The translations under genes were made by a program, and so were the position numbers. A stretch of 64,000 bases of DNA from Sulfurospirillaceae bacterium (lineage in GTDB: Bacteria > Campylobacterota > Campylobacteria > Campylobacterales > Sulfurospirillaceae): positions 96,001 to 160,000 of the forward strand of contig JAWVXD010000001.1 of NCBI GenBank assembly GCA_033723415.1, read 5' to 3'. This document shows, piece after piece, positions 1 through 12,461 of this stretch (its first letter is position 1; every line of letters begins with the position of its first letter). The notes below the pieces were generated by a model that was given only the letters and a program-made list of their open reading frames with translations, made no database searches and was not told the origin of the DNA.

Positions 1-735
1 TATTGTATTACTCGCTTTAATCATAGTATTAAGTCTTGCCTGATTTTCACTTGCTACAGACTCTAAAAATGCCCTATATATTGAGATATGTAGATATTCT
101 TTTATCAGAGAGTGCAAAATGTCTTTAGAGTTTAGATAAAATAGCGGCTCTTTTCTTAGTGATCTTTTATGCAATTTTGAAAAATCAGGAGGCAAAACTT
201 TTTCTTCAACAATTTTATAACTGTCTGTTTCTAGTTCTGCGTGTATGAGAGTTATGTTATCAAAGTGCTCTTGCTCAAATATTTCTATGAGATATGAGGA
301 GAGTTCAATCGCATTGACCTCTATAGCCTCAACACTTGAAGTACCGCTTAGATAGTGTTTACATGAGATTTTTCTTGATTTTGCTTCTTGTGCACCTTTT
401 TCACCCATAACAATAGTAATAGAATCTTCAGTCGGAATTTTTTTGAAAAAATTTAAAATATCTTCATTGAAAAAACCACAAAGCCCCTCCTGTGATAAGA
501 AGAGTACATAAATTGTTCTCTTCTTATTGTCTGGATTATATTTTATAAGATGTGGAAAAATTGTGATAATATCTCCAAATGAATCTTCGATGGAGTTTTT
601 GTAAATACGAAAATTTGATAGACTCTTTTTAGCTGTTTGCACATTAAAATTGGCAAAGGCTTTCATTGCTGAGACGATCTCTTCTATCTCTCTCATACTT
701 TGCAGTTTTCTTTTTAATTTTAAAGAAGTGATCAT
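1..735 (-). CDS. atpG: ATP synthase gamma subunit, N-ATPase type (3' end runs off the window)
   Basis: Not in the ORF track. Manual translation from ATG at 735 (ATGA overlap with the atpA stop) gives MITSLKLKRKLQSMREIEEIVSAMKAFA, and the window edge reads ESVASENQARLNTMIKASNTI; both are typical gamma segments. Confidence 0.9.
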   Translation of the reverse strand, partial: MITSLKLKRKLQSMREIEEIVSAMKAFANFNVQTAKKSLSNFRIYKNSIEDSFGDIITIFPHLIKYNPDNKKRTIYVLFLSQEGLCGFFNEDILNFFKKIPTEDSITIVMGEKGAQEAKSRKISCKHYLSGTSSVEAIEVNAIELSSYLIEIFEQEHFDNITLIHAELETDSYKIVEEKVLPPDFSKLHKRSLRKEPLFYLNSKDILHSLIKEYLHISIYRAFLESVASENQARLNTMIKASNTI

Positions 736-2246
736 GACTGCCACTCATTTATAAATGTCTCTGTTGCCGTTTTCAATTGGCTTACCAAATAGTTGTCTAT
801 ATCATTTGCTGTTGCTACAGCCTGTAAGATGTCTTGATAGTGCGTTTGTAGGTAGATAGCAAATTTATCTATAAATAATTCTATATGTTCCAATGGTATC
901 GTCTTCAAATACCCTTCGTTATGAAGAAAAAATATCGCTACTTGTATTGGCATGCTGATATGTTCCAAGCGATCCTGTTTGAGTGCAACCCTGAGCGCTT
1001 GTCCTTTGTCTATAAGTTCTTGAGTTTCTTTCTCTACTTTTGCACCAAATTTTGTAAAAATTTCAACTTCCAGAAACTGGGAGTAATCAAGCTTCAATTT
1101 GATTGCCATTTTCTTGAGTGCTTGTACCTGCGCTTTGGCTCCGATACGAGAAACTGATCGACCAATATCAATAGCAGGTAAAAAACCTCTGTTAAAAAGT
1201 TCTCGATCTAGATAGATTTGACCGTCAGTTATTGAAATGAGATTAGTAGGAATATAGTCAGAAATTCTTCCGGCTTGGGTCTCTACAATAGGAAGTGCCG
1301 TGATCGAACCGCCTTTGTGCCGATCAGATCTTTTACCGGCTCTCTCAAGAAGTTTTGCATGGATAAAAAAGATATCTCCCGGATATGCTTCACGCCCCGG
1401 TGGAATTTCAAGGAGTAAAGAGATACTTCTATACGTATCTGCGTGTTTGGTAAGATCATCATAAATGATTAAGACATCCTTTCCTTGGTCTGCAAAAAAC
1501 TCTGCGATTGCAGAGCCTGAATAAGGGGCTATAAATTTCAGACCAGGCGCTGCATCTGCCGGTGCAGCAATAATAATAGTATAAGAAAGGGCATTACTTT
1601 TTTTTAGGTCATTGATCACTCTGGATATTTGCGCTTTTTTTTGTCCGATGGCAACATATATGCAGTAAACGTTTTTATCTTTTTGATTGATGATGGTATT
1701 GACAGCAATAGAAGTTTTCCCCAAAGATGAATCAGAGATGATAAGCTCCCTTTGTCCTTTTCCTATGGGTATCATCGCATCTATGATTTTGATACCTGTA
1801 TAAAGCGGTTCTTTGACAAAATCACGCTCTGTCATTTTGACAGCTTCTCTCTCTATATGATAATACTCTTTTGTTTTTATCTCTTTTTTTTCATCGATCA
1901 GTTTCGAGAGAGGGTCGATAACTTTGCCAAGTAATTCGTATCCGACCGGGATTGAGATGCTTTGATCGGTACAAGTTACTATATCTTTTACATTAAGAGT
2001 GGTATAATCACCTAAAACCACAGCTTGGACAGACTCTTTTGTGATATTGAGAACCAAAGCAAAAAGATTGTGCGGAAGTTTTAAAAGTTCAAAGTAAGCA
2101 ACACTAGAGAGATCTTTGACCTCTATGATGCCATCACTTATTTTTGAGATATATCCCTCTTCATTTATAGTGATTTTTGGTGTAAACTGATGAGATATCC
2201 GGTAAAGTTTTTCAAATACTTGATCAATTTGTTTTTTTGTTCCCAT
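732..2246 (-). CDS. atpA: ATP synthase alpha subunit, N-ATPase type
   Basis: Motifs IPIGKGQRELII, YDDLTKHA, PPGREAYPGD, TNLISITDGQI, SVSRIG. Walker A is degenerate (SDSSLGKT). Confidence 0.95.
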   Translation of the reverse strand: MGTKKQIDQVFEKLYRISHQFTPKITINEEGYISKISDGIIEVKDLSSVAYFELLKLPHNLFALVLNITKESVQAVVLGDYTTLNVKDIVTCTDQSISIPVGYELLGKVIDPLSKLIDEKKEIKTKEYYHIEREAVKMTERDFVKEPLYTGIKIIDAMIPIGKGQRELIISDSSLGKTSIAVNTIINQKDKNVYCIYVAIGQKKAQISRVINDLKKSNALSYTIIIAAPADAAPGLKFIAPYSGSAIAEFFADQGKDVLIIYDDLTKHADTYRSISLLLEIPPGREAYPGDIFFIHAKLLERAGKRSDRHKGGSITALPIVETQAGRISDYIPTNLISITDGQIYLDRELFNRGFLPAIDIGRSVSRIGAKAQVQALKKMAIKLKLDYSQFLEVEIFTKFGAKVEKETQELIDKGQALRVALKQDRLEHISMPIQVAIFFLHNEGYLKTIPLEHIELFIDKFAIYLQTHYQDILQAVATANDIDNYLVSQLKTATETFINEWQS

Positions 2247-2247
2247 T

Positions 2248-2997
2248 TTACAACTCTTTGAAAACTTTATCTTCCAGTTGTTTCAATCTTCCTTGGATTG
2301 AACCATCTATTATCTTGTTTTCTATTCCTACCCTTATACCGCCTATGAGAGAATTTTCAGTAATAATGTTTAATGAGACTATTTTTAGATCGAAAGTATT
2401 TTCAAGTGTCTCTCTGATCAGACGCATTGTTTCATTTTTTATGTTTAACGGTGTAGATATATTGATCTCACACTCTTTGTTTTTCAGCTCTTCTTTTAAT
2501 ATTTTTATCTCATTTGTATTTTTACTCTTTATTTCATAAAGGAATTTTTCGATAAGTTTTTGATGAATATCTTCATCTATAAATTCTTCTACAAATCTGC
2601 CAAGATAATCAAGACTAAATTGTAAACTTTGCTCTTTGATGTCATTTTCTACTTTCTTTTTTTCATGCTCTAGTATGCTTTTTTGCTTTAATCTCTCTTT
2701 CCCAAGTTCTTTGTCTATTTCTTCCAAAAGACGGATCTTCTCCTGCTCGGCTTCTTTTCTTGCGATACTAAGCTCTTTTTCTTTTAAAGTATCTATCTCT
2801 TTTAGTTTATCTTGATAGTGCAGTTCTTGTTCTTTTAGTTTATCTTCACCGATTTGCAGGTCTTCCAAACGTTTTTTGATATTTTCATCCCTCTTTTGAA
2901 TAATGTTCTTTAACGGGTTGAAAAAGAGTTTGTATAAAATATACAAAACAACAAAAAAGTTAATCGTCTGAAATAAAAAAGTCCACCAATTAAACAT
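2248..2997 (-). CDS. atpF: ATP synthase subunit b with C-terminal delta-like domain (N-ATPase AtpF)
   Basis: N-terminal TM helix (WWTFLFQTINF), coiled coil, and delta/OSCP-like tail LIGGIRV...IDGSI. Confidence 0.9.
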   Translation of the reverse strand: MFNWWTFLFQTINFFVVLYILYKLFFNPLKNIIQKRDENIKKRLEDLQIGEDKLKEQELHYQDKLKEIDTLKEKELSIARKEAEQEKIRLLEEIDKELGKERLKQKSILEHEKKKVENDIKEQSLQFSLDYLGRFVEEFIDEDIHQKLIEKFLYEIKSKNTNEIKILKEELKNKECEINISTPLNIKNETMRLIRETLENTFDLKIVSLNIITENSLIGGIRVGIENKIIDGSIQGRLKQLEDKVFKEL

Positions 2998-3002
2998 GAC
3001 GT

Positions 3003-3269
3003 TTATTTCACTACTAAACTAAGTAAAGGATTGGCAAACAAAATGATCAGCGCAATAACAAGTGAATAGATCGCCACCGATTCAACCATTGCCATTCCGA
3101 CAAAAAGTAGACGAGTTATCTCATTGGCAGATTCAGGTTGTCTTCCAATAGTCTCTATTGCTTTTGTAAGTGCATCGGCTTCACCTCGTGATGGTCCGTA
3201 TCCTCCTATTGCGATCGTCAAACCTGCAGTAATGATAGATACTGCCACGATTATAGTCATACTATCCAT
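3003..3269 (-). CDS. atpE: ATP synthase subunit c, N-ATPase type
   Basis: Start reassigned to MDSM (ATG 3269, preceded by GAGGAG). Two TM helices, RQPE loop, ESVAIY, and an extra Glu in helix 1 (PSRGE). Confidence 0.93.
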   Translation of the reverse strand: MDSMTIIVAVSIITAGLTIAIGGYGPSRGEADALTKAIETIGRQPESANEITRLLFVGMAMVESVAIYSLVIALIILFANPLLSLVVK

Positions 3270-3270
3270 T

Positions 3271-3969
3271 TTATTTCTCCTCAGTTGAATTAAGGTTTTC
3301 TGCTCTGATGCCACCGATGATAAAGATGTAAGTCAACAGGCCAAAAAGAAAAGCATGTAAAACATCTCCTACTATACTAAGCAATATCATGGGTACCGGC
3401 ACTAAAAAACCAACAAGGGCGATCAAAATCGCAACGATCATCTCCCAGCTCAGCATATTACCAAAAAGCCGTATCGCCATCGCGAATATTCTTGAAATAT
3501 CTGCAAATAGGTTGAACGGCAGTAAAAAAACCGAAGGTTCAATATACTTTTTGACATATCTTTTAAAGCCATTAAATTTTATACCATAATAGTGAATAGA
3601 AAAAAAAGCTATGGTTGAAAGTGCAGCCGTGGTACTCAAGTCTCTTGTGGGATTGTGAAAATATGGTATAAGTGATATCAGATTCATAAAACCGACATAG
3701 ATCCATATCGTACCGATAAATGGTACCAATATCCAGCCGGAGATATTTGCAGAACCCTCCAGCGTTTCTTTGATCGCCATCACGATTTTTTCTGAAAAAA
3801 GCTGCGTCTTTGAAGGGTTTAAGATCGATAAGCGTCTACTGATCACAAATGACAAAATAGCTAAGATAGCAATGATGATCCATGTTGTAATAACAGTATC
3901 TGACACAGGTATTGTAAGTCCTGCAGCTTTAATTTCAAATTTTACTGTCGGAAAAACATTTTCAATCAT
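3271..3969 (-). CDS. atpB: ATP synthase subunit a
   Basis: PTRDLSTT, PFNL and the conserved Arg in RLFGNM; strongly hydrophobic. Confidence 0.93.
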   Translation of the reverse strand: MIENVFPTVKFEIKAAGLTIPVSDTVITTWIIIAILAILSFVISRRLSILNPSKTQLFSEKIVMAIKETLEGSANISGWILVPFIGTIWIYVGFMNLISLIPYFHNPTRDLSTTAALSTIAFFSIHYYGIKFNGFKRYVKKYIEPSVFLLPFNLFADISRIFAMAIRLFGNMLSWEMIVAILIALVGFLVPVPMILLSIVGDVLHAFLFGLLTYIFIIGGIRAENLNSTEEK

Positions 3970-3987
3970 AATAATCTCTCATGATCC

Positions 3988-5825
<1,838 letters not shown>

Positions 5826-5833
<8 letters not shown>

Positions 5834-6113
5834 AGACAAAGAGAGTGAGAAATTTAAAAAAACCATAGATAAACAGGCATCATGGCTGGTAAAATGGCGA
5901 AAAAAAGGAATTATTTGGGAAAAGGTCATGATAGTTGGTGCGATAGGCTGGATGATCATATTGCCGATGGTAATAGGAGGTTATCTAGGAAAGTATCTGG
6001 ACAAGCATTATAAAATGCAGACAGGTGATATCTCCTGGACGATGACTTTTATCATTTTAGGACTTTTAATCGCTATATACTCTGTCTGGAGAGTATTTTT
6101 TTATAAAAAATGA
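5826..6113 (+). CDS. atpQ: N-ATPase AtpQ (AtpZ/AtpI-like) membrane protein
   Basis: GAIGWMIILPMVIGGYLGKYLD...SWT; two TM helices; follows atpC. A GTG start at 5826 is inferred. Confidence 0.8.
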
Positions 6114-6352
6114 AAGAGCTACTTCTATTTTTTACGGGTGTCGCGATCGGATTTTTCTATTTTTGGCATCTTTATCTACAATTAAATTATCTAAAAAATA
6201 AGCATAAAATTCCTATCTTCTTTACCTTTTCTATACGCTTTGGCTTATTTAGTATCATTCTTGCTATACTATTTCATTTATTTCATTCTTTAGTGCTTTA
6301 TACAATTTTGGGATTTATCATTAGCAAGTTTTGGATCTATTTTTATAAATAA
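6110..6352 (+). CDS. atpR: N-ATPase AtpR-like small membrane protein
   Basis: Hydrophobic 80-aa protein, GxAIGFFYF-L and SIRF; occupies the canonical position after atpQ. Confidence 0.7.
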   Translation: MKELLLFFTGVAIGFFYFWHLYLQLNYLKNKHKIPIFFTFSIRFGLFSIILAILFHLFHSLVLYTILGFIISKFWIYFYK

Positions 6353-6416
6353 TAACGTGATCTCACACAGATAAAGCAATTTTCAACTACATAATGTCCA
6401 TATTTTGTACCTGGTA

Positions 6417-6444
6417 AAGGAAGCCTTTATACCAAAGGCTCCTT
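6417..6444. terminator. Hairpin between convergent atpR and CMD genes
   Basis: AAGGAAGCCTTT-ATACC-AAAGGCTCCTT with one bulge. Confidence 0.5.
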
Positions 6445-6478
6445 CAGTAGTATAATAGCCATATGACATATCAATATC

Positions 6479-6814
6479 TTATGATTTCTTTGTAAAATCG
6501 TTGATGGCTTTTTCTAATGGCATCATATACATCAGTGCAGGTCCTCCGTGCATTAGAACCGCCTGAAATGCCGATTCAAGTATCTCTTCTCTGGTTGCAC
6601 CGGCATCAATTGCCTCTTTTACATGGTATACGATGCATGATTCGCACTGTAGCGCTATTGATAGTGCAACATTGGTAAGCTCTTTTTGTTTTGTATCCAA
6701 TGCACCAGGTTTTGCAGTAGCAACCAAAAATTTAGTGAAGCCTTCCATTTGTTCTGGCATCTCTTTTGACAATCTTGCAAGAAATTCTTTGATTTCTTCT
6801 ACTTTATGTTTCAT
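6479..6814 (-). CDS. Carboxymuconolactone decarboxylase / AhpD-like protein
   Basis: GALDTKQKEL..AL, CESC..YH, GATREEILE, GGPA. Confidence 0.88.
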   Translation of the reverse strand: MKHKVEEIKEFLARLSKEMPEQMEGFTKFLVATAKPGALDTKQKELTNVALSIALQCESCIVYHVKEAIDAGATREEILESAFQAVLMHGGPALMYMMPLEKAINDFTKKS

Positions 6815-6901
6815 TTCTATTCCTTTATTATAAAATTCTGATAACTAATCAGTTTATTGTAGTATTTAGTCTATTCCTTCAACCATATCTCTCCTTTAGG
6901 A

Positions 6902-8626
6902 TTATGTTCTATGAAGCATATTTTTAAGGCTACTTAGATCGTAGGTATTGACGACATCCTTTTTCTCCAGCCATCCTCTTCTTGCTTGGTTGAGTGCATA
7001 TACCATGTAATGCAGAGTCTCTATATTGTGTGCATCGGTACTAAGGGCAAATTTTAGTCCGATTTCTTTGGCCATTTTAGTATAAATATCATTGAGATCA
7101 AGACGTTTGGGTTGAGCGTTTATCTCCATGATACATCCCTTTGCTTTGGCTTCTTCAAAAATACGTTGCATATCTGCCTCATATGCCTCTCTTTCTCCTA
7201 TGAGTCTTCCTGTAGGATGGGCGAGTATGTTCAAGTAGGGATTGTCCATGGCTTTAAGAATTCTTTCGGTCTGCTTTTCTGCTGAGAGTTTGAACTTGTC
7301 ATGGATTGCACCCACGACCAGATCAAGCTCCTTCAAGATAGAATCCGGCCATACCAAAGAACCGTCTTCCAGGATATCGACTTCGGCGCTTTTAAGTATG
7401 GTAAAATCCTGAAGTGTCTCATTGACGCGGTCTATCTCTTCAAGTTGTGCTCTTACTTTCCTTTGATCCATCCCGTGTACGATCGGGATATGTGCAGAAT
7501 GGTCCGTCATGGCAATGTAGCTGTAACCCATTGCTTTTGCCGCTTCTGCCATCTCTAAAACACTATTGTATCCGTCACTGTACACACTGTGCATATGAAG
7601 ATCGCCTTTGATGTCATCTGTCTTGAGAAGTTTTGGAAGTGTGTTATCCCGCGCTGCTTCGAGCTCACCTCTATTCTCTCTCAGCTCGGGCTCAATGTAC
7701 CTTAAACCCACTGTTTTGTACATTTCTTCTTCTGTAGATCCTGCGATCATTTTTCCTTTTGTGTTAAATATACCGTATTCGTTGACTTTGAGCCCCAGAT
7801 CTATTGCGATCTTTCTTATCGCAATATTGTGGGATTTTGAGCCGGTAAAATAGTGCAGGGCAGCACCGTAACTTTCATCTTTGACACAGCGTAGATCGAC
7901 TTGTAAATGATTATTGAGGATGACGGTAGAGCGTGTGTCACCGTGAGAGAGAATCTCTTTTATATCGGGATATGCCACAAAATAGTCTATGAGAGAGGAG
8001 GGAGATTTGGATGTAACGATTATATCTAGGTCTCCAACAGTATCTTTTCTTCTTCTGAAACTTCCAGAAACCGTGACTTTTGAAACATCCTTTGCTGAGC
8101 GGAGATACGATTCCAATGCTTTGGCATGAGGCTCTGCGGTAGAATATAAAAAACGTTGTCCTGCTTTTTTAGCCAAAAGCATGCCTTTGAGGATCGTCTG
8201 TTCCAGTTTTTCGTCAAAACCATCCAATGCTTTTATCCGGTGTTCTTCTGCAGCTTTTCTAAGTGTCTCAAGAGAATCGATGTGCAGTTTTTCATACAAG
8301 AGTTTTGTACGTTTGGGACCGATACCCTCCACTTTGAGCAGATCAAGCAGATGGGGAGGAAAAGAGTGTTTGAGCGCTTCAAGCTTGGCAAGCTTGCCCG
8401 TTTTGACGATCTCCTCGATTTTGAGGGCTATATGTTCTCCTATAGTCGGGATCTGGGAGAGATCTGTACCATCATACACCATTTCGGAAATATCCGTACC
8501 CAGATTTTCTATGGTGCGCGCAGCATTTTTGTATGCCCGTATTTTAAAAGGATTTTCGCCCTTGATCTCCAGCAGGTCCGCAAGATCATCAAAAAAAGCC
8601 GCAATTTCCACATTTGATATCACCAT
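6902..8626 (-). CDS. polX: DNA polymerase X with PHP 3'-5' exonuclease domain
   Basis: GENPFKIRAY, HhH motif GIGPK, GSFRR, GDLD, YFTGSK, and PHP motifs HMHS, TDH, AHP, TDAH. Start reassigned to ATG 8626 after AAGGAG. Confidence 0.93.
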   Translation of the reverse strand: MVISNVEIAAFFDDLADLLEIKGENPFKIRAYKNAARTIENLGTDISEMVYDGTDLSQIPTIGEHIALKIEEIVKTGKLAKLEALKHSFPPHLLDLLKVEGIGPKRTKLLYEKLHIDSLETLRKAAEEHRIKALDGFDEKLEQTILKGMLLAKKAGQRFLYSTAEPHAKALESYLRSAKDVSKVTVSGSFRRRKDTVGDLDIIVTSKSPSSLIDYFVAYPDIKEILSHGDTRSTVILNNHLQVDLRCVKDESYGAALHYFTGSKSHNIAIRKIAIDLGLKVNEYGIFNTKGKMIAGSTEEEMYKTVGLRYIEPELRENRGELEAARDNTLPKLLKTDDIKGDLHMHSVYSDGYNSVLEMAEAAKAMGYSYIAMTDHSAHIPIVHGMDQRKVRAQLEEIDRVNETLQDFTILKSAEVDILEDGSLVWPDSILKELDLVVGAIHDKFKLSAEKQTERILKAMDNPYLNILAHPTGRLIGEREAYEADMQRIFEEAKAKGCIMEINAQPKRLDLNDIYTKMAKEIGLKFALSTDAHNIETLHYMVYALNQARRGWLEKKDVVNTYDLSSLKNMLHRT

Positions 8627-8766
8627 CTGTATGCTCCTTTTTTTGCATCCTGAACATTTTTCAGACACATAAAAAACCGACCATCTCATTCTACATGATA
8701 CCACATTTATTGCTTTTTATTTCAATTTTATTGTAGAATCAAGGTAAGAATTGAAAAGGAGAAACA

Positions 8767-9408
8767 ATGTTTAAAGACCGAAATGATGCCGGTCTAAAAC
8801 TGGCAAATGCACTCCTGAAATACAAAGATACCAATGCACTGGTACTTGCTATTCCTCGTGGTGGAGTAGAATTAGGTTATGAAGTGGCGAAAGCTTTGAA
8901 ATGTGATTTTTCTCTGATCATATGTCGTAAACTTCCTTTCCCCGACAATCCGGAAAGCGGTTTTGGCGCTGTCGCAGAAGACGGTTCTCTCTATATCAAC
9001 CCTGAATCCGCAGCTTATGTATCGGAAGAAGAAATCGTATCTATTATTCAAAAGCAAAACTATGAGATACAAAGACGTATCCATAAGCTAAGAAACAATA
9101 GAGGCTTGCCTCTTATTAAGGGACGGACAGTGATACTGATTGATGATGGCATCGCTATGGGGTCGACCATGCATACGGCAGTTTCCCTTTGTCGCAAACA
9201 TGATGCCGGAAAAATCGTAGTTGCAGTGCCTGTCGCCAGCTCTCAGGCCATTGAAAAATTCACGCAAATGGCCGATGAAGTCGTTGTGCTGGAGTCTCCA
9301 CACAATTTTCATGCTGTTGCTCAGGTATATGAGAATTGGTATGATGTAAGTGATGAGGAAGTCTTATCTATTGTTGAAAAAAGTAAAGGAAAGAGTGATA
9401 AGATCTAA
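8767..9408 (+). CDS. Phosphoribosyltransferase family protein
   Basis: FKDRNDAG, AIPRGG and the PRPP-binding loop VILIDDGIAMGST. Confidence 0.88.
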   Translation: MFKDRNDAGLKLANALLKYKDTNALVLAIPRGGVELGYEVAKALKCDFSLIICRKLPFPDNPESGFGAVAEDGSLYINPESAAYVSEEEIVSIIQKQNYEIQRRIHKLRNNRGLPLIKGRTVILIDDGIAMGSTMHTAVSLCRKHDAGKIVVAVPVASSQAIEKFTQMADEVVVLESPHNFHAVAQVYENWYDVSDEEVLSIVEKSKGKSDKI

Positions 9409-9413
9409 AAAAA

Positions 9414-10976
9414 TTATAATCCGGGAGCTTTCCACATAGAAGTCGTTACTCCGGCATCAACTAGTTTTAATTGAGCTTCGTAAGCGTATTCAAACTTCAC
9501 TTTCAAGGTATCATAAATTTTTTTATTTTCAGGATTCGGCTCAAACACTTTTTCCCAAACGACAAGTTCTTTGGCAGCTGAGGTGAGATCTTTGTATATT
9601 CCGGCTCCAACGCCTGCAGCCATTGCTGCACCTAGTGCCGTGGCTTCCGTGATTTTTGGAATTTTAACTCTGCATCCGGTCACATCACTGAGTACCTGTG
9701 ACCAAAGAGCACCTTTGCTAGCACCTCCGGCAAAGACTATCGTATCTATTTTGATACCGGTAAATTTTTTGATCTTATCAAGGTTTATAGATGAAACGAT
9801 CGCCGCATTTTCTTGTAGGCTTTTAAACATTGAAATACGGTTACAGATAAGCGGATCGAGAGAGAGGTTCAAAAAGCTTGGAGCTGCATGGTACCATTTG
9901 CCGTACTTCATAGAGTCAGAAAATATCGGGATAATTCCATATGAGCCTGCAGGAACATCTTTGGCTTTTTCTTCTAAAATCGTATAGGTATCTATGCCTT
10001 TATTTTTTGCTTCTTGCTTTTCAAGTTCACAAAACGCGTCACGAAACCATCTCATGACAAGACCGCTAAAAAAGGTTATGCCCTCTGCTTGCGAAAGTCC
10101 TCTTATGACATGTGGATTGACTCGAACCGATATATCTTTTGGTGGTATGACATCACTTTTTATATTAACGATCTGTTGCCAAAAAGATCCACCTAAAATC
10201 GCTATATCACCCTCATTTACGACGCCAAGCCCAGCTGAGCCCAGCTGAACATCGCCGCCGCCCATCACGACTTTTGTAGATGTTGAGAGTCCACTCTCAC
10301 GTGCGGCTTTTTCACTGACCGTACCCATAAGGGTGCCGACTTCCAGACATGGAGGGAAGATGTCATCTTTGAGACCGATCTTTTTTGCCATAGAACGATC
10401 CCAATTTCTTTCTTTGAGTGAAAATATCCCGGTAGTCCCGCCGTTGCTCGGATCGGTTGCGAGGATGTTGCTGAGTTTGAAAAGTATCCAGTCGCCGATC
10501 ATGGAGATCGAAGCTACCTTTTCATAGACATCAGGTTTGTTGTTCTTGAGCCACATGATGCGAGGAAGTGCGCCTAGCGCAAAAGTCTGACCAGAAGTTG
10601 CATAGAACGCTTCCTCGATGCCCGGAAAGTTTTCTTTGAGGTATGTGACCTCTTTGTCGGCTCTGGCATCGACATTTGCTACGGCAAAGAGTTCATGCCC
10701 CTCTTTGTCATAAAGCACGATGCCCTCACGCATACTGGTAGCACTGAGTGCCATAATGTCTTCACCTTTGAGATTGGCTAAGGAGAGGGCTTCTTTGATG
10801 CACTGACATGTCAGGATCCAGTTGTTGTGACAATCAAAGCTCATGCTGTTTGGCACTCCAGGTTCGCCCAGGTGCGTCCATTCGCTTTGAGATACGCTGA
10901 TTTGATTGCCGTTTTCATCAAATATAACCGCTCTGACACTCCCAGTCCCCGCATCGATCGCCATCAAATAAGACAT
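9414..10976 (-). CDS. lsrK: Autoinducer-2 (DPD) kinase, FGGY family
   Basis: YLMAIDAGTGSVRAV, TSMREG, NVDARA, SGQT, DPSNGGTTG, GGGDVQLG, GGSFWQQ, RVNPHV and the C-terminus WKAPGL, which matches LsrK. Confidence 0.9.
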   Translation of the reverse strand: MSYLMAIDAGTGSVRAVIFDENGNQISVSQSEWTHLGEPGVPNSMSFDCHNNWILTCQCIKEALSLANLKGEDIMALSATSMREGIVLYDKEGHELFAVANVDARADKEVTYLKENFPGIEEAFYATSGQTFALGALPRIMWLKNNKPDVYEKVASISMIGDWILFKLSNILATDPSNGGTTGIFSLKERNWDRSMAKKIGLKDDIFPPCLEVGTLMGTVSEKAARESGLSTSTKVVMGGGDVQLGSAGLGVVNEGDIAILGGSFWQQIVNIKSDVIPPKDISVRVNPHVIRGLSQAEGITFFSGLVMRWFRDAFCELEKQEAKNKGIDTYTILEEKAKDVPAGSYGIIPIFSDSMKYGKWYHAAPSFLNLSLDPLICNRISMFKSLQENAAIVSSINLDKIKKFTGIKIDTIVFAGGASKGALWSQVLSDVTGCRVKIPKITEATALGAAMAAGVGAGIYKDLTSAAKELVVWEKVFEPNPENKKIYDTLKVKFEYAYEAQLKLVDAGVTTSMWKAPGL

Positions 10977-10977
10977 A

Positions 10978-12153
10978 TTACTTCCTTAGTTTTGCTTGTT
11001 CAAGTTCCCAATACTCCATCTCAAAGCTGTCCTTTAAACTGATGCTTTTATATCCGCCTAATTGATCTGCACGCAGTACGGCTAACATCGTGTGCTCTAC
11101 GATATCGTTGATGATCAAAGCTTCTTTCTCGTTTTTCCCAAAACTCACGATACCAAAGTCTTTGATGATTGCATAGTTCGGAGCAGGGTTCAAGCAGATT
11201 TCATCATGAGCAAAAGCATTAAAATAGTTTTTGTAGTCTGCTTCGTATTTTTGAATCGCATCTTCGATATTTTCATCTTCCAAGATCAATGGAACGCGTT
11301 TGGTTCTGATGATATGCTCCGGTGTTAAAACACCTCTTTGGGCAAAATCTTGAAGGTTTTCATGCGCAGCGTAAGTATATGCCAGATCAGACGTATTGAC
11401 ATGCAAGATCACATCATGACCTTTGTGCTCAGAGATGATGTGTTGCAGTTTGTTCAGATCGACCGGATTTTTTGGAGTGGCATTTTTGAGCGTTATATGT
11501 GCATTTTTTTGCAAAAATGCTTCCGCTTTACTGATAGCATCGATCATCTTGGTATAGGATCTTTTGGCGTCATCATCAAAGGTAAAGATACCATGATGAT
11601 GCAGTATGATCCCCTCACACTTCGACCAGTCTAAATCTTTGCTTTTTTCATAAATGCTCTGTGCCAAGATAAATCCAGGCATCACGTATGGAATGATCAA
11701 AAAGTTTGGAAATAGCTTTTGGATATGTTCCTCTCCCGAAACTGAGTTTGAAATCGTTACAACGGCATCAGCATGCGTATGATCGACAAACTTAAAGGGA
11801 ATGAGGGCATGAAGTATGGCTTCGACCGATGGATTTGGAGCGGTTTTGTCGATCATGGCAGCTTTTTGAGAGCTGACCATATCGGTGTCGCTTAGCGTCT
11901 TGAGCTTTGCCATCTCTAGCAAAACGTCAAGTTTCACAGGCGCGAAACCTTCTGCTTTGATGCTCACCAAGTCCCAGCCGCTGCCTTTGACGTAGAGTAT
12001 CTCTTCGCCGTTTACTGTAGTTTTTACCGAGGTATTGCCGCCACCGTGAAGTACCAGCTCATCACTTCTGCCTAAGAGATTTGAGGTGTAAACACGAAGT
12101 TTTAAGTCACTATCGAAGGCTTTTGCTTCTTCATCGACAAATAGATTTTTCAA
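10978..12153 (-). CDS. Class II aldolase/adducin family protein (RhaD-like domain, no fused SDR)
   Basis: HGGGNTSVK, KGSGWDL, PSVEAILH, HTHAD, HHG, TPEH, EYWELEQAKL. Confidence 0.85.
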   Translation of the reverse strand: MKNLFVDEEAKAFDSDLKLRVYTSNLLGRSDELVLHGGGNTSVKTTVNGEEILYVKGSGWDLVSIKAEGFAPVKLDVLLEMAKLKTLSDTDMVSSQKAAMIDKTAPNPSVEAILHALIPFKFVDHTHADAVVTISNSVSGEEHIQKLFPNFLIIPYVMPGFILAQSIYEKSKDLDWSKCEGIILHHHGIFTFDDDAKRSYTKMIDAISKAEAFLQKNAHITLKNATPKNPVDLNKLQHIISEHKGHDVILHVNTSDLAYTYAAHENLQDFAQRGVLTPEHIIRTKRVPLILEDENIEDAIQKYEADYKNYFNAFAHDEICLNPAPNYAIIKDFGIVSFGKNEKEALIINDIVEHTMLAVLRADQLGGYKSISLKDSFEMEYWELEQAKLRK

Positions 12154-12156
12154 GAC

Positions 12157-12444
12157 TTAGCCCAGTACTTCAAGCTCATCCGTATATTTTTCTAAACAAT
12201 ACGGCTCATAGCTAGATTTGTATATCGCATAGTGCGCTGAGGCTTTGTGTCCATCAAGGGCTGCTTCATCTCTCCAACACTCGTATGCCATGAATTTATT
12301 TGGCTTGTTTTTGTATTGGAAGATCTCATAAAAAAGACATCCGTCTTCTGCCTTGGAAGGTTTGACCATCGCACTTAAAAGTTCTTTCATCTTTTCGATA
12401 CCATCGGGTTTTGCTATAAAGGTTACACGTTTTGTAATTGTCAT
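12157..12444 (-). CDS. ABM-family (putative quinol monooxygenase / LsrG-like) protein
   Basis: AEDGCLFY, YECW, HKASAHY; in the same operon as lsrK. Start at ATG 12444 after AGGA. Confidence 0.75.
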   Translation of the reverse strand: MTITKRVTFIAKPDGIEKMKELLSAMVKPSKAEDGCLFYEIFQYKNKPNKFMAYECWRDEAALDGHKASAHYAIYKSSYEPYCLEKYTDELEVLG

Positions 12445-12461
12445 GATACGTCCTATTTTAT

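Follow-up and report, generated by a model that had tools for sequence, protein, structure and literature searches.

A compact lsrK gene triad with a class II aldolase-fold enzyme in the place of LsrF, predicted to salvage phospho-DPD in Campylobacterota

The analyzed stretch (referred to as the window) comprises 64,000 nucleotides of the genome of a Sulfurospirillaceae bacterium (Campylobacterota; GenBank assembly GCA_033723415.1, contig JAWVXD010000001.1, positions 96,001 to 160,000) and carries a triad of genes encoding (i) a small ABM protein (dimeric alpha-beta barrel), (ii) a class II aldolase-fold enzyme, and (iii) LsrK, the autoinducer-2 (AI-2) kinase acting on 4,5-dihydroxy-2,3-pentanedione (DPD). 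In the canonical pathway LsrK phosphorylates DPD, LsrG isomerizes the product and LsrF yields dihydroxyacetone phosphate (DHAP) together with acetyl-CoA (PMC8016206, in part). The module described here is real, conserved and coherent. It very probably degrades phospho-DPD with DHAP as a product, and its aldolase is predicted from sequence to catalyze the terminal C-C cleavage in the slot of LsrF. As no importer or repressor accompanies the triad, its likely purpose is to recover or remove DPD made by the cell itself, i.e., importer-less salvage. A DPD route in which a class II aldolase replaces LsrF and the by-product of LuxS is salvaged had been proposed in the first-pass annotation of the window; it is supported by the co-occurrence of the aldolase with lsrK, by the adjacency of luxS, and by the occupation of the lsrF slot in alphaproteobacterial operons.

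The three genes (Table 1) are separated by only 3 bp (ABM/aldolase) and 1 bp (aldolase/kinase), and the tight coupling described in the first-pass annotation was confirmed by the ORF coordinates and Pfam matches. By every sequence test the kinase is a true LsrK, predicted to phosphorylate DPD. It scores 864.5 bits against the LsrK equivalog NF008187 (cut-off 528; model positions 3-521 of 521), the next best family being xylulokinase (188.6 bits vs. a cut-off of 380; all sugar kinases at most 189 bits). The match to the E. coli LsrK structure 5ya0 has an E-value of 4e-191 (glycerol kinases approximately 1e-27), and the protein is 55% identical to Salmonella LsrK across 519 aa. No second FGGY kinase was found in the genome.

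Table 1. Genes of the triad, with positions numbered from the first nucleotide of the window.
Feature	Position	Strand	Length	Family match
ABM/dimeric alpha-beta barrel protein	12157-12444	minus	95 aa	PF03992, 54.2 bits
Class II aldolase-fold enzyme	10978-12153	minus	391 aa, TTG start	PF00596, 70.7 bits vs. cut-off of 22.2 bits
LsrK, autoinducer-2 (DPD) kinase	9414-10976	minus	520 aa	Pfam FGGY_N/C; NF008187

The source genome (G000; 100% complete) carries luxS and pfs, the latter encoding the methylthioadenosine (MTA)/S-adenosylhomocysteine (SAH) nucleosidase, and SAH hydrolase was not found in it; by established pathway knowledge, DPD is therefore an obligate by-product of SAH recycling. The absence of lsrF, lsrB and lsrR, originally noted for the window, extends to the whole genome: no match to PF01791 (DeoC/LsrF fold) or to NF006081 was obtained with LsrF searches whose model was checked on Salmonella and Bacillus records known to hold LsrF, and tblastn gave no match for LsrB or LsrR, the LsrB query being positive in three control records. 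Thus, luxS was found and the other three genes were not; neither an lsrF-containing operon elsewhere in the genome nor a rhamnose isomerase gene (rhaI) was detected. The mtnK query also gave no match (mtnA and MTA phosphorylase were not searched for in this genome), and no split-off partner of the short-chain dehydrogenase/reductase (SDR) type was found, the best SDR match being generic (28%). Acetyl-CoA synthetase (Acs) is present. The sole Peripla_BP_4 protein was considered as an AI-2 receptor and rejected, having no LsrB match and overlapping a GGDEF/EAL-type gene. This arrangement of a periplasmic sugar-binding-fold protein, not LsrB, with a GGDEF/EAL-type sensor gene lies at L084:8534-11958 and also at L144:5669-8541.

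The aldolase, the only PF00596 protein found in the genome, corresponds to the aldolase part (N-terminal ~400 model positions) of the PRK08324-type aldolase/SDR family without the SDR. It scores 459 bits against NF006197 (cut-off 627), with the match confined to model positions 1-410 of 583, and it ends two residues beyond EYWELEQAKL, where, as the first reading had it, the SDR half of the fused forms begins. The protein has the features of the class II aldolase/adducin superfamily, i.e., the fold, three metal-binding His residues, a catalytic acid and a phosphate motif. GGGNTS, E111, H125, H127 and H187, as well as G39-N40, are invariant in 57 relatives. In a structure model (pLDDT 93.3), residues 1-215 match 3m4r with Z 30.6 and FucA-type aldolases with Z of approximately 16-18. 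The second domain (approximately residues 220-391), searched within the whole model, has a best structural match of Z 3.5 and carries the invariant residues T277, P278, H280, K285 and E380-W382. In the tree, the subfamily is placed apart from the clade of RhaEW, a bifunctional L-rhamnulose-1-phosphate aldolase/dehydrogenase (support 100/100). Three subclades, i.e., the lsr-linked and the fused forms of Alphaproteobacteria and the forms of Campylobacterota, branch without a resolved order; the fused Campylobacterota forms nest among the short ones, and the trees are compatible with one or with several losses of the SDR.

The ABM protein is a predicted phospho-DPD isomerase filling the LsrG slot, placed there by context and aldolase fusion rather than by orthology: it is fused to the aldolase in P0115 and L046, and close orthologues (E ≤ 2e-30) occur in 14 of 16 lsrK-positive and in none of 205 lsrK-negative Campylobacterota genomes. 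Against the LsrG equivalog NF007791 it reaches 31.6 bits, below the cut-off of 135 (S. meliloti ABM: 106.4), and it is closer to generic, uncharacterized ABM structures than to LsrG. The alignment bears out the earlier remark that an LsrG-like Glu/His/His/Tyr set is kept (E55, H66, H71 and Y72, corresponding to E54, H65, H70 and Y71 of LsrG), with Met26 at the position of Asn25. This position is Met in all 8 Campylobacterota rows and Asn in all 4 alphaproteobacterial ones. Roles of LsrG Asn25, Glu54, His65 and His70 were reportedly described by Marques in 2011. In the two lsrK-positive genomes without a close ABM orthologue, a cupin gene adjoins lsrK. Genes for cupins of a single family (47-58% identity) come after lsrK in Salmonella, Bacillus, Deinococcus and several Campylobacterota (L162:11571-11921, L164:11690-12103, L158:11563-11961, L037:9639-10013, L142:7388-7756 and L144:1874-2248). 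The Bacillus locus has the order lsrK-cupin-lsrF, without an LsrG match. The cupin is a candidate second isomerase.

The grouping of the triad genes is not due to chance. Among the best 80 of 256 related kinase loci (79 with titles carrying Campylobacterota names), whose flanks were often ended early by contig ends, the aldolase is present in 57 and the ABM gene in 56. Other flanking genes include mqnE (31), metK (24), mtnK (7), mtnA (6) and a cupin gene (4); lsrF, lsrB, lsrR and luxS were not found in these flanks. The aldolase-lsrK co-occurrence is near-perfect: phylum-wide, both occur in the same 16 of 221 genomes and neither in the other 205, which holds also when the genes are unlinked. 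Within one family of 131 genomes, 98 have both, 30 neither and 3 only one, the discordant ones being fragmented assemblies of 210-250 contigs. LsrF above the cut-off and LsrB were each found in 0 of these 131 genomes, with positive controls run. In 50 genomes chosen from those of the 80 kinase loci, including 22 without a short aldolase beside lsrK, the aldolase family was present in all 50 and luxS in 48. The luxS gene lies within 400 bp of the aldolase gene, in divergent orientation, in at least 45 of 100 aldolase-positive family genomes (48 same-contig cases entered).

In several other bacteria, members of the aldolase family take the place of LsrF within operons for AI-2 uptake. Eleven lsrK loci from a plasmid collection were opened (two through the aldolase search and nine picked for diversity from 80 records). 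Seven of them, from S. meliloti ml59 and 1021, Rhizobium WL3, Thalassospira, Paracoccus, Alloyangia and Tritonibacter, contain lsrR-lsrK-ABM and lsrACDB and, directly after lsrB, no lsrF but a 413-417 aa aldolase homologue (34-39% identity) with the same terminal motif. Three loci have lsrF and no such aldolase, namely those of Salmonella and Lacticaseibacillus (lsrF after lsrB) and Bacillus; the Deinococcus locus has neither within 10 kb. The aldolase and lsrF were never found together in the 11 loci, and no LsrF above the cut-off was detected on five alphaproteobacterial lsr replicons, searched as whole replicons rather than whole genomes.

In the pathway that we propose, LsrK would phosphorylate DPD, the ABM protein would isomerize phospho-DPD to 3-hydroxy-5-phosphonooxypentane-2,4-dione (P-HPD), and the metal-dependent aldolase-fold enzyme would hydrolyze P-HPD to DHAP and acetate. 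The last step would be a retro-Claisen reaction, in which the metal site that stabilizes the DHAP enediolate adds water to the 2,4-diketone and frees the acid. Of the two products, DHAP would feed into triose metabolism, and acetyl-CoA synthetase would activate the acetate anew. We rather favor this whole scheme, including release of free acetate, and regard hydrolytic cleavage as more likely than plain retro-aldol cleavage. Class II enzymes stabilize the DHAP enolate on zinc, and RhaEW without NAD+ formed neither DHAP nor lactate (PMC3870299, in part); for LsrF, a working model put forward in the past was cleavage of a hydrated isomer of phospho-AI-2 into acetate plus DHAP (PMC2728841, in part).

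P-HPD would be a 5-deoxypentulose-1-phosphate oxidized at the carbon next to the DHAP unit. In the fused relatives, the SDR half would oxidize the reduced substrates delivered by MtnK/MtnA; as DPD arrives already oxidized, the SDR would be dispensable. The aldolase family occurs in three forms: full-length (~653 aa), short, and forms of 500-585 aa in which a decayed SDR remnant without the glycine motif is left. Within the 131-genome family (G280 left out as too fragmented), mtnK is present with 17 of 17 full-length forms, of which 10 were seen to have intact motifs and the others were assigned by length, with 0 of 4 decayed remnants, and with only 4 of 78 short forms plus one below the cut-off. 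By these presence and decay patterns, the aldolase part goes with lsrK, and the SDR part with mtnK. Several Sulfurimonas loci have the order ABM-lsrK-metK-mtnK-mtnA-aldolase/SDR-mqnE, with a single aldolase per genome, and some short-form genomes with mtnK have another aldolase, or a candidate for one, in the mtnK cluster. The loss of the SDR fits an enzyme that requires an oxidized substrate. SDR remnants lacking the NAD-binding glycine motif were observed at L038:10936-12543 and in L170-L174, P0122-P0130 and P0137; in L173, the reading frame continues from the aldolase and its remnant into mqnE (908 aa). In the mtnK-mtnA clusters of two short-form genomes lies a 202-aa protein with no NCBIfam match (L134:7469-8077 and L136:2483-3091), possibly another aldolase of the DHAP shunt.

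The wider family was sampled with a distant short homologue, which found 80 metagenome loci: 63 full-length forms, 21 loci near mtnA and 8 complete short forms (14 loci were scored as motif-less, and variant motifs occur among the 8 of them inspected). In 9 of the 80 loci, an LsrF homologue (60-67% to Salmonella; 493-515 bits vs. a cut-off of 297 in the five scored) stands beside the aldolase/SDR without lsrK. Six closely related loci (L257-L260, L267 and L270; e.g., L260:6939-10934) have the order mtnA-aldolase/SDR-lsrF, the others being L213, L254 and L262. The combination of mtnA, aldolase/SDR and a true lsrF without lsrK ties the aldolase family to a P-HPD-like intermediate: C4 oxidation of the MtnA product, 5-deoxyribulose-1-phosphate, would give P-HPD, the substrate of LsrF. 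This suggests that LsrF in these loci serves 5'-deoxyadenosine/MTA salvage and not AI-2. Three of the eight short forms stand beside an LsrK-like kinase, with a separate phosphoglycerate dehydrogenase (PGDH)-like enzyme in the two inspected, and five stand alone. The two inspected loci (L194:5329-9272 and L196:5065-9278) encode the PGDH-like dehydrogenase, the LsrK-like kinase (488.8 bits; cut-off 528), the short aldolase, a sugar ABC transporter and a SorC-type regulator, and appear to be a sister module, which has a separate oxidoreductase and would serve another substrate.

A further reading, somewhat less likely than not, extends the proposed reaction to the whole aldolase-fold branch, i.e., metal-dependent hydrolysis of 2,4-diketo 1-phosphates to DHAP and an acid, with the SDR (including RhaW) oxidizing the sugar phosphate before cleavage and not the aldehyde afterwards. 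If so, P-HPD would be the point at which the breakdown of AI-2 and the salvage of 5'-deoxyadenosine/MTA converge, and it would be handled by one enzyme in Sulfurimonas-type operons and by the SDR and LsrF in the mtnA-aldolase/SDR-lsrF operons. A precedent for such chemistry is OtnC, a class II-fold enzyme releasing DHAP and CO2 from 3-oxo-tetronate 4-phosphate.

Among the alternatives, the one that keeps pathway and substrate and lets the acetyl group be passed to CoA or phosphate, bound by the second domain, is unlikely. The enzyme does fill the slot of a CoA-dependent thiolase (PMC8016206, in part), and its C-terminal domain combines invariant residues with no clear structural match; however, RhaEW, which has the same domain and motifs, freed lactate in an assay whose listed components did not include CoA (PMC3870299, in part), and operons with both the aldolase and lsrF are more easily explained by different products.

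It is improbable that a reductase encoded elsewhere makes 5-deoxypentulose-1-phosphate from phospho-DPD or P-HPD, which the aldolase then cleaves to DHAP and acetaldehyde in the manner of Ald2/DrdA. This would be standard class II aldolase chemistry, the DrdA structures 6btd and 6btg are among the fold matches, and full-length relatives stand behind mtnK-mtnA in the position of Ald2 (PMC13474568, in part). Yet no reductase recurs among the neighbor families of the 80 kinase loci or in the seven alphaproteobacterial operons, the genome offers only the generic SDR match, and the fused SDR decays once mtnK is lost while lsrK is still kept. About equally improbable is a substrate other than DPD, such as a deoxypentulose from radical-SAM waste or rhamnulose/xylulose, in which case the triad would serve a sugar or a deoxysugar. 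Promiscuity is frequent in FGGY kinases, and in L194 an LsrK-like kinase just below the cut-off accompanies a dehydrogenase and a short homologue in the setting of a sugar ABC transporter. Against this stand the kinase scores given above, the lack of a rhamnose isomerase, a sole periplasmic sugar-binding-fold protein that is joined to a GGDEF/EAL-type gene, the luxS adjacency, the retention of lsrK beside mtnK-mtnA in one operon, and the position of the aldolase outside the RhaEW clade.

Still less credit is due to other chemistry on phospho-DPD, i.e., O2-dependent cleavage to 2-phosphoglycolate, or isomerization or epimerization with the C-C cleavage occurring spontaneously or elsewhere. The fold is found, with similar Z, in dioxygenases (POD) and epimerases (AraD), some relatives have a cupin together with lsrK, and 2-phosphoglycolate was reported from phospho-AI-2 with LsrG (PMC2728841, in part), but the aldolase takes the position of lsrF and not of lsrG, its closest assayed relative (RhaEW) makes DHAP, and the FucA-type phosphate motif and Glu111 are invariant. 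Consumption of neighbors' AI-2 as the main purpose, the quenching role also put forward in the first-pass annotation, is poorly supported and very improbable: DPD might enter without the Lsr importer, and the homologous module has this role in luxS-less S. meliloti and Rhodobacter (PMC3386761, in part), but neither the genome nor the 131 family genomes have LsrB, the genome lacks LsrR, and the module clusters with luxS, metK and mtnK/mtnA.

Several observations weigh against the proposed pathway. As luxS is present in 128 of the 131 family genomes, its presence is uninformative, and luxS co-occurrence, being non-discriminating, was dropped as evidence; approximately 30 luxS-positive relatives have no module, which is therefore dispensable. 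The sampled genomes are kin and most full-length forms belong to one genus, so the counts overstate independence. None of the 80 wider-family metagenome loci has a true lsrK, and SDR-less homologues occur without lsrK in 8 of them, so SDR loss alone does not point to DPD. No active-site residue or sequence feature marking lsr-linked vs. other subfamily members was found, and the fold also spans epimerases, dehydratases, decarboxylases and dioxygenases. The ABM protein, of a clade separate from LsrG, is not an LsrG orthologue, and the Asn25 of LsrG is missing from it. Finally, the authors of PMC3870299 (in part) read the NAD+ dependence of RhaEW as cleavage followed by aldehyde oxidation.

As regards the genetic setting, a kdsB-type gene lies 78 bp upstream of the triad and a phosphoribosyltransferase gene converges on it 5 bp downstream. 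A promoter and terminator scan gave 6 and 3 sites, respectively, vs. 8.9 and 4.0 in shuffled sequence, and is uninformative. The GC content of positions 6900-12450 of the window (a PolX-PHP gene, the phosphoribosyltransferase gene and the triad) is 0.42-0.43, compared with 0.345 for the genome, and 0.43 is reached by 0.6% of the 3-kb windows of the genome. The triad was not found in the sole same-genus genome sampled, and the nearest aldolase (80%; support 100/99) comes from another family. Together, the GC-rich region, the triad-less same-genus genome and the nearest aldolase in another family suggest a recent lateral gain. An alternative ATP synthase operon that resembles an N-ATPase is preceded, just outside the window, by a gene similar to that of acetyl-CoA synthetase and by genes of the pyruvate dehydrogenase E1/E2 type; these genes lie at positions 732-6352 of the window and at L084:12760-18745. 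At L084:1759-3495 and 6139-7992, some 15 kb beyond the window, an ORF resembling a reverse transcriptase (578 aa; YSDD motif noted by eye) and unassigned ORFs possibly form a defense island.

Judged by sequence, the triad would work like an Lsr processing arm, but is neither a canonical Lsr member nor RhaEW. It shares with the Lsr system of E. coli and Salmonella (lsrRK, lsrACDBFG) an orthologous LsrK, an ABM-fold protein in the isomerase role and DHAP as the predicted product; it differs in having no importer, repressor, LsrG orthologue or class I-fold CoA thiolase LsrF, and a class II metal enzyme in the last slot. The lsr-like operon of S. meliloti pSymB, presumably the one called ait (aitF), and related alphaproteobacterial operons likewise have an ABM gene after lsrK and, instead of lsrF, a short homologue of the aldolase. 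In contrast to the triad, they keep lsrR, lsrACDB and the ABM Asn25, and S. meliloti has no luxS (PMC3386761, in part); these operons thus act on outside AI-2. According to the same source (in part), neither S. meliloti nor Salmonella grows on AI-2 as sole carbon source. No assigned function for the aldolase of these operons was found in the literature searched, the primary S. meliloti paper lying outside that search. RhaEW (YuxG; TIGR02632; PMC3870299, in part) has the same two-domain aldolase part, with the His triad, GGGNTS and the C-terminal EYW, and yields DHAP and an acid. The triad aldolase is only 26-32% identical to it, forms a separate clade, scores 219.3 bits vs. 567.75 for TIGR02632, lacks the fused SDR half and is not accompanied by rhamnose genes. 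The DHAP shunt for MTA/5'-deoxyadenosine (MtnK, MtnA, Ald2/DrdA) also uses a class II aldolase to free DHAP from a by-product of S-adenosylmethionine (SAM), and in many Sulfurimonas genomes the 653-aa fused orthologue follows mtnK-mtnA; however, the source genome has no mtnK, Ald2, a FucA-type enzyme with one domain, gives an aldehyde, and the triad enzyme is predicted to use an oxidized substrate and to give an acid.

A full-text literature search found no description of the module or of any class II enzyme in the place of LsrF, and no papers pairing lsrK with Sulfurimonas; the S. meliloti gene may have been remarked on before, some primary Lsr papers and supplements lying outside this search. 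New here are the tracking of the aldolase with lsrK and of the SDR with mtnK, the series of decaying SDR halves, and operons of the mtnA-aldolase/SDR-lsrF type. According to a 2021 paper, what becomes of AI-2 in bacteria that lack LsrF "has yet to be determined" (PMC7828210, in part), and the finding names a candidate enzyme for it, with a homologue present in S. meliloti 1021. It also bears on the question of LuxS/AI-2 as a signal or a waste product: of the genomes sampled in the Sulfurimonas family, three quarters carry a receptor-less and regulator-less kit that looks built for recovering the carbon of DPD, often beside luxS or SAM-cycle genes. If the aldolase acts as proposed, it would be the missing alternative to LsrF and, should its relatives act alike, would stand for an unrecognized reaction of a whole branch of the class II aldolase fold; and if oxidation precedes cleavage throughout, the annotated mechanism of the large aldolase/SDR family would need revision.

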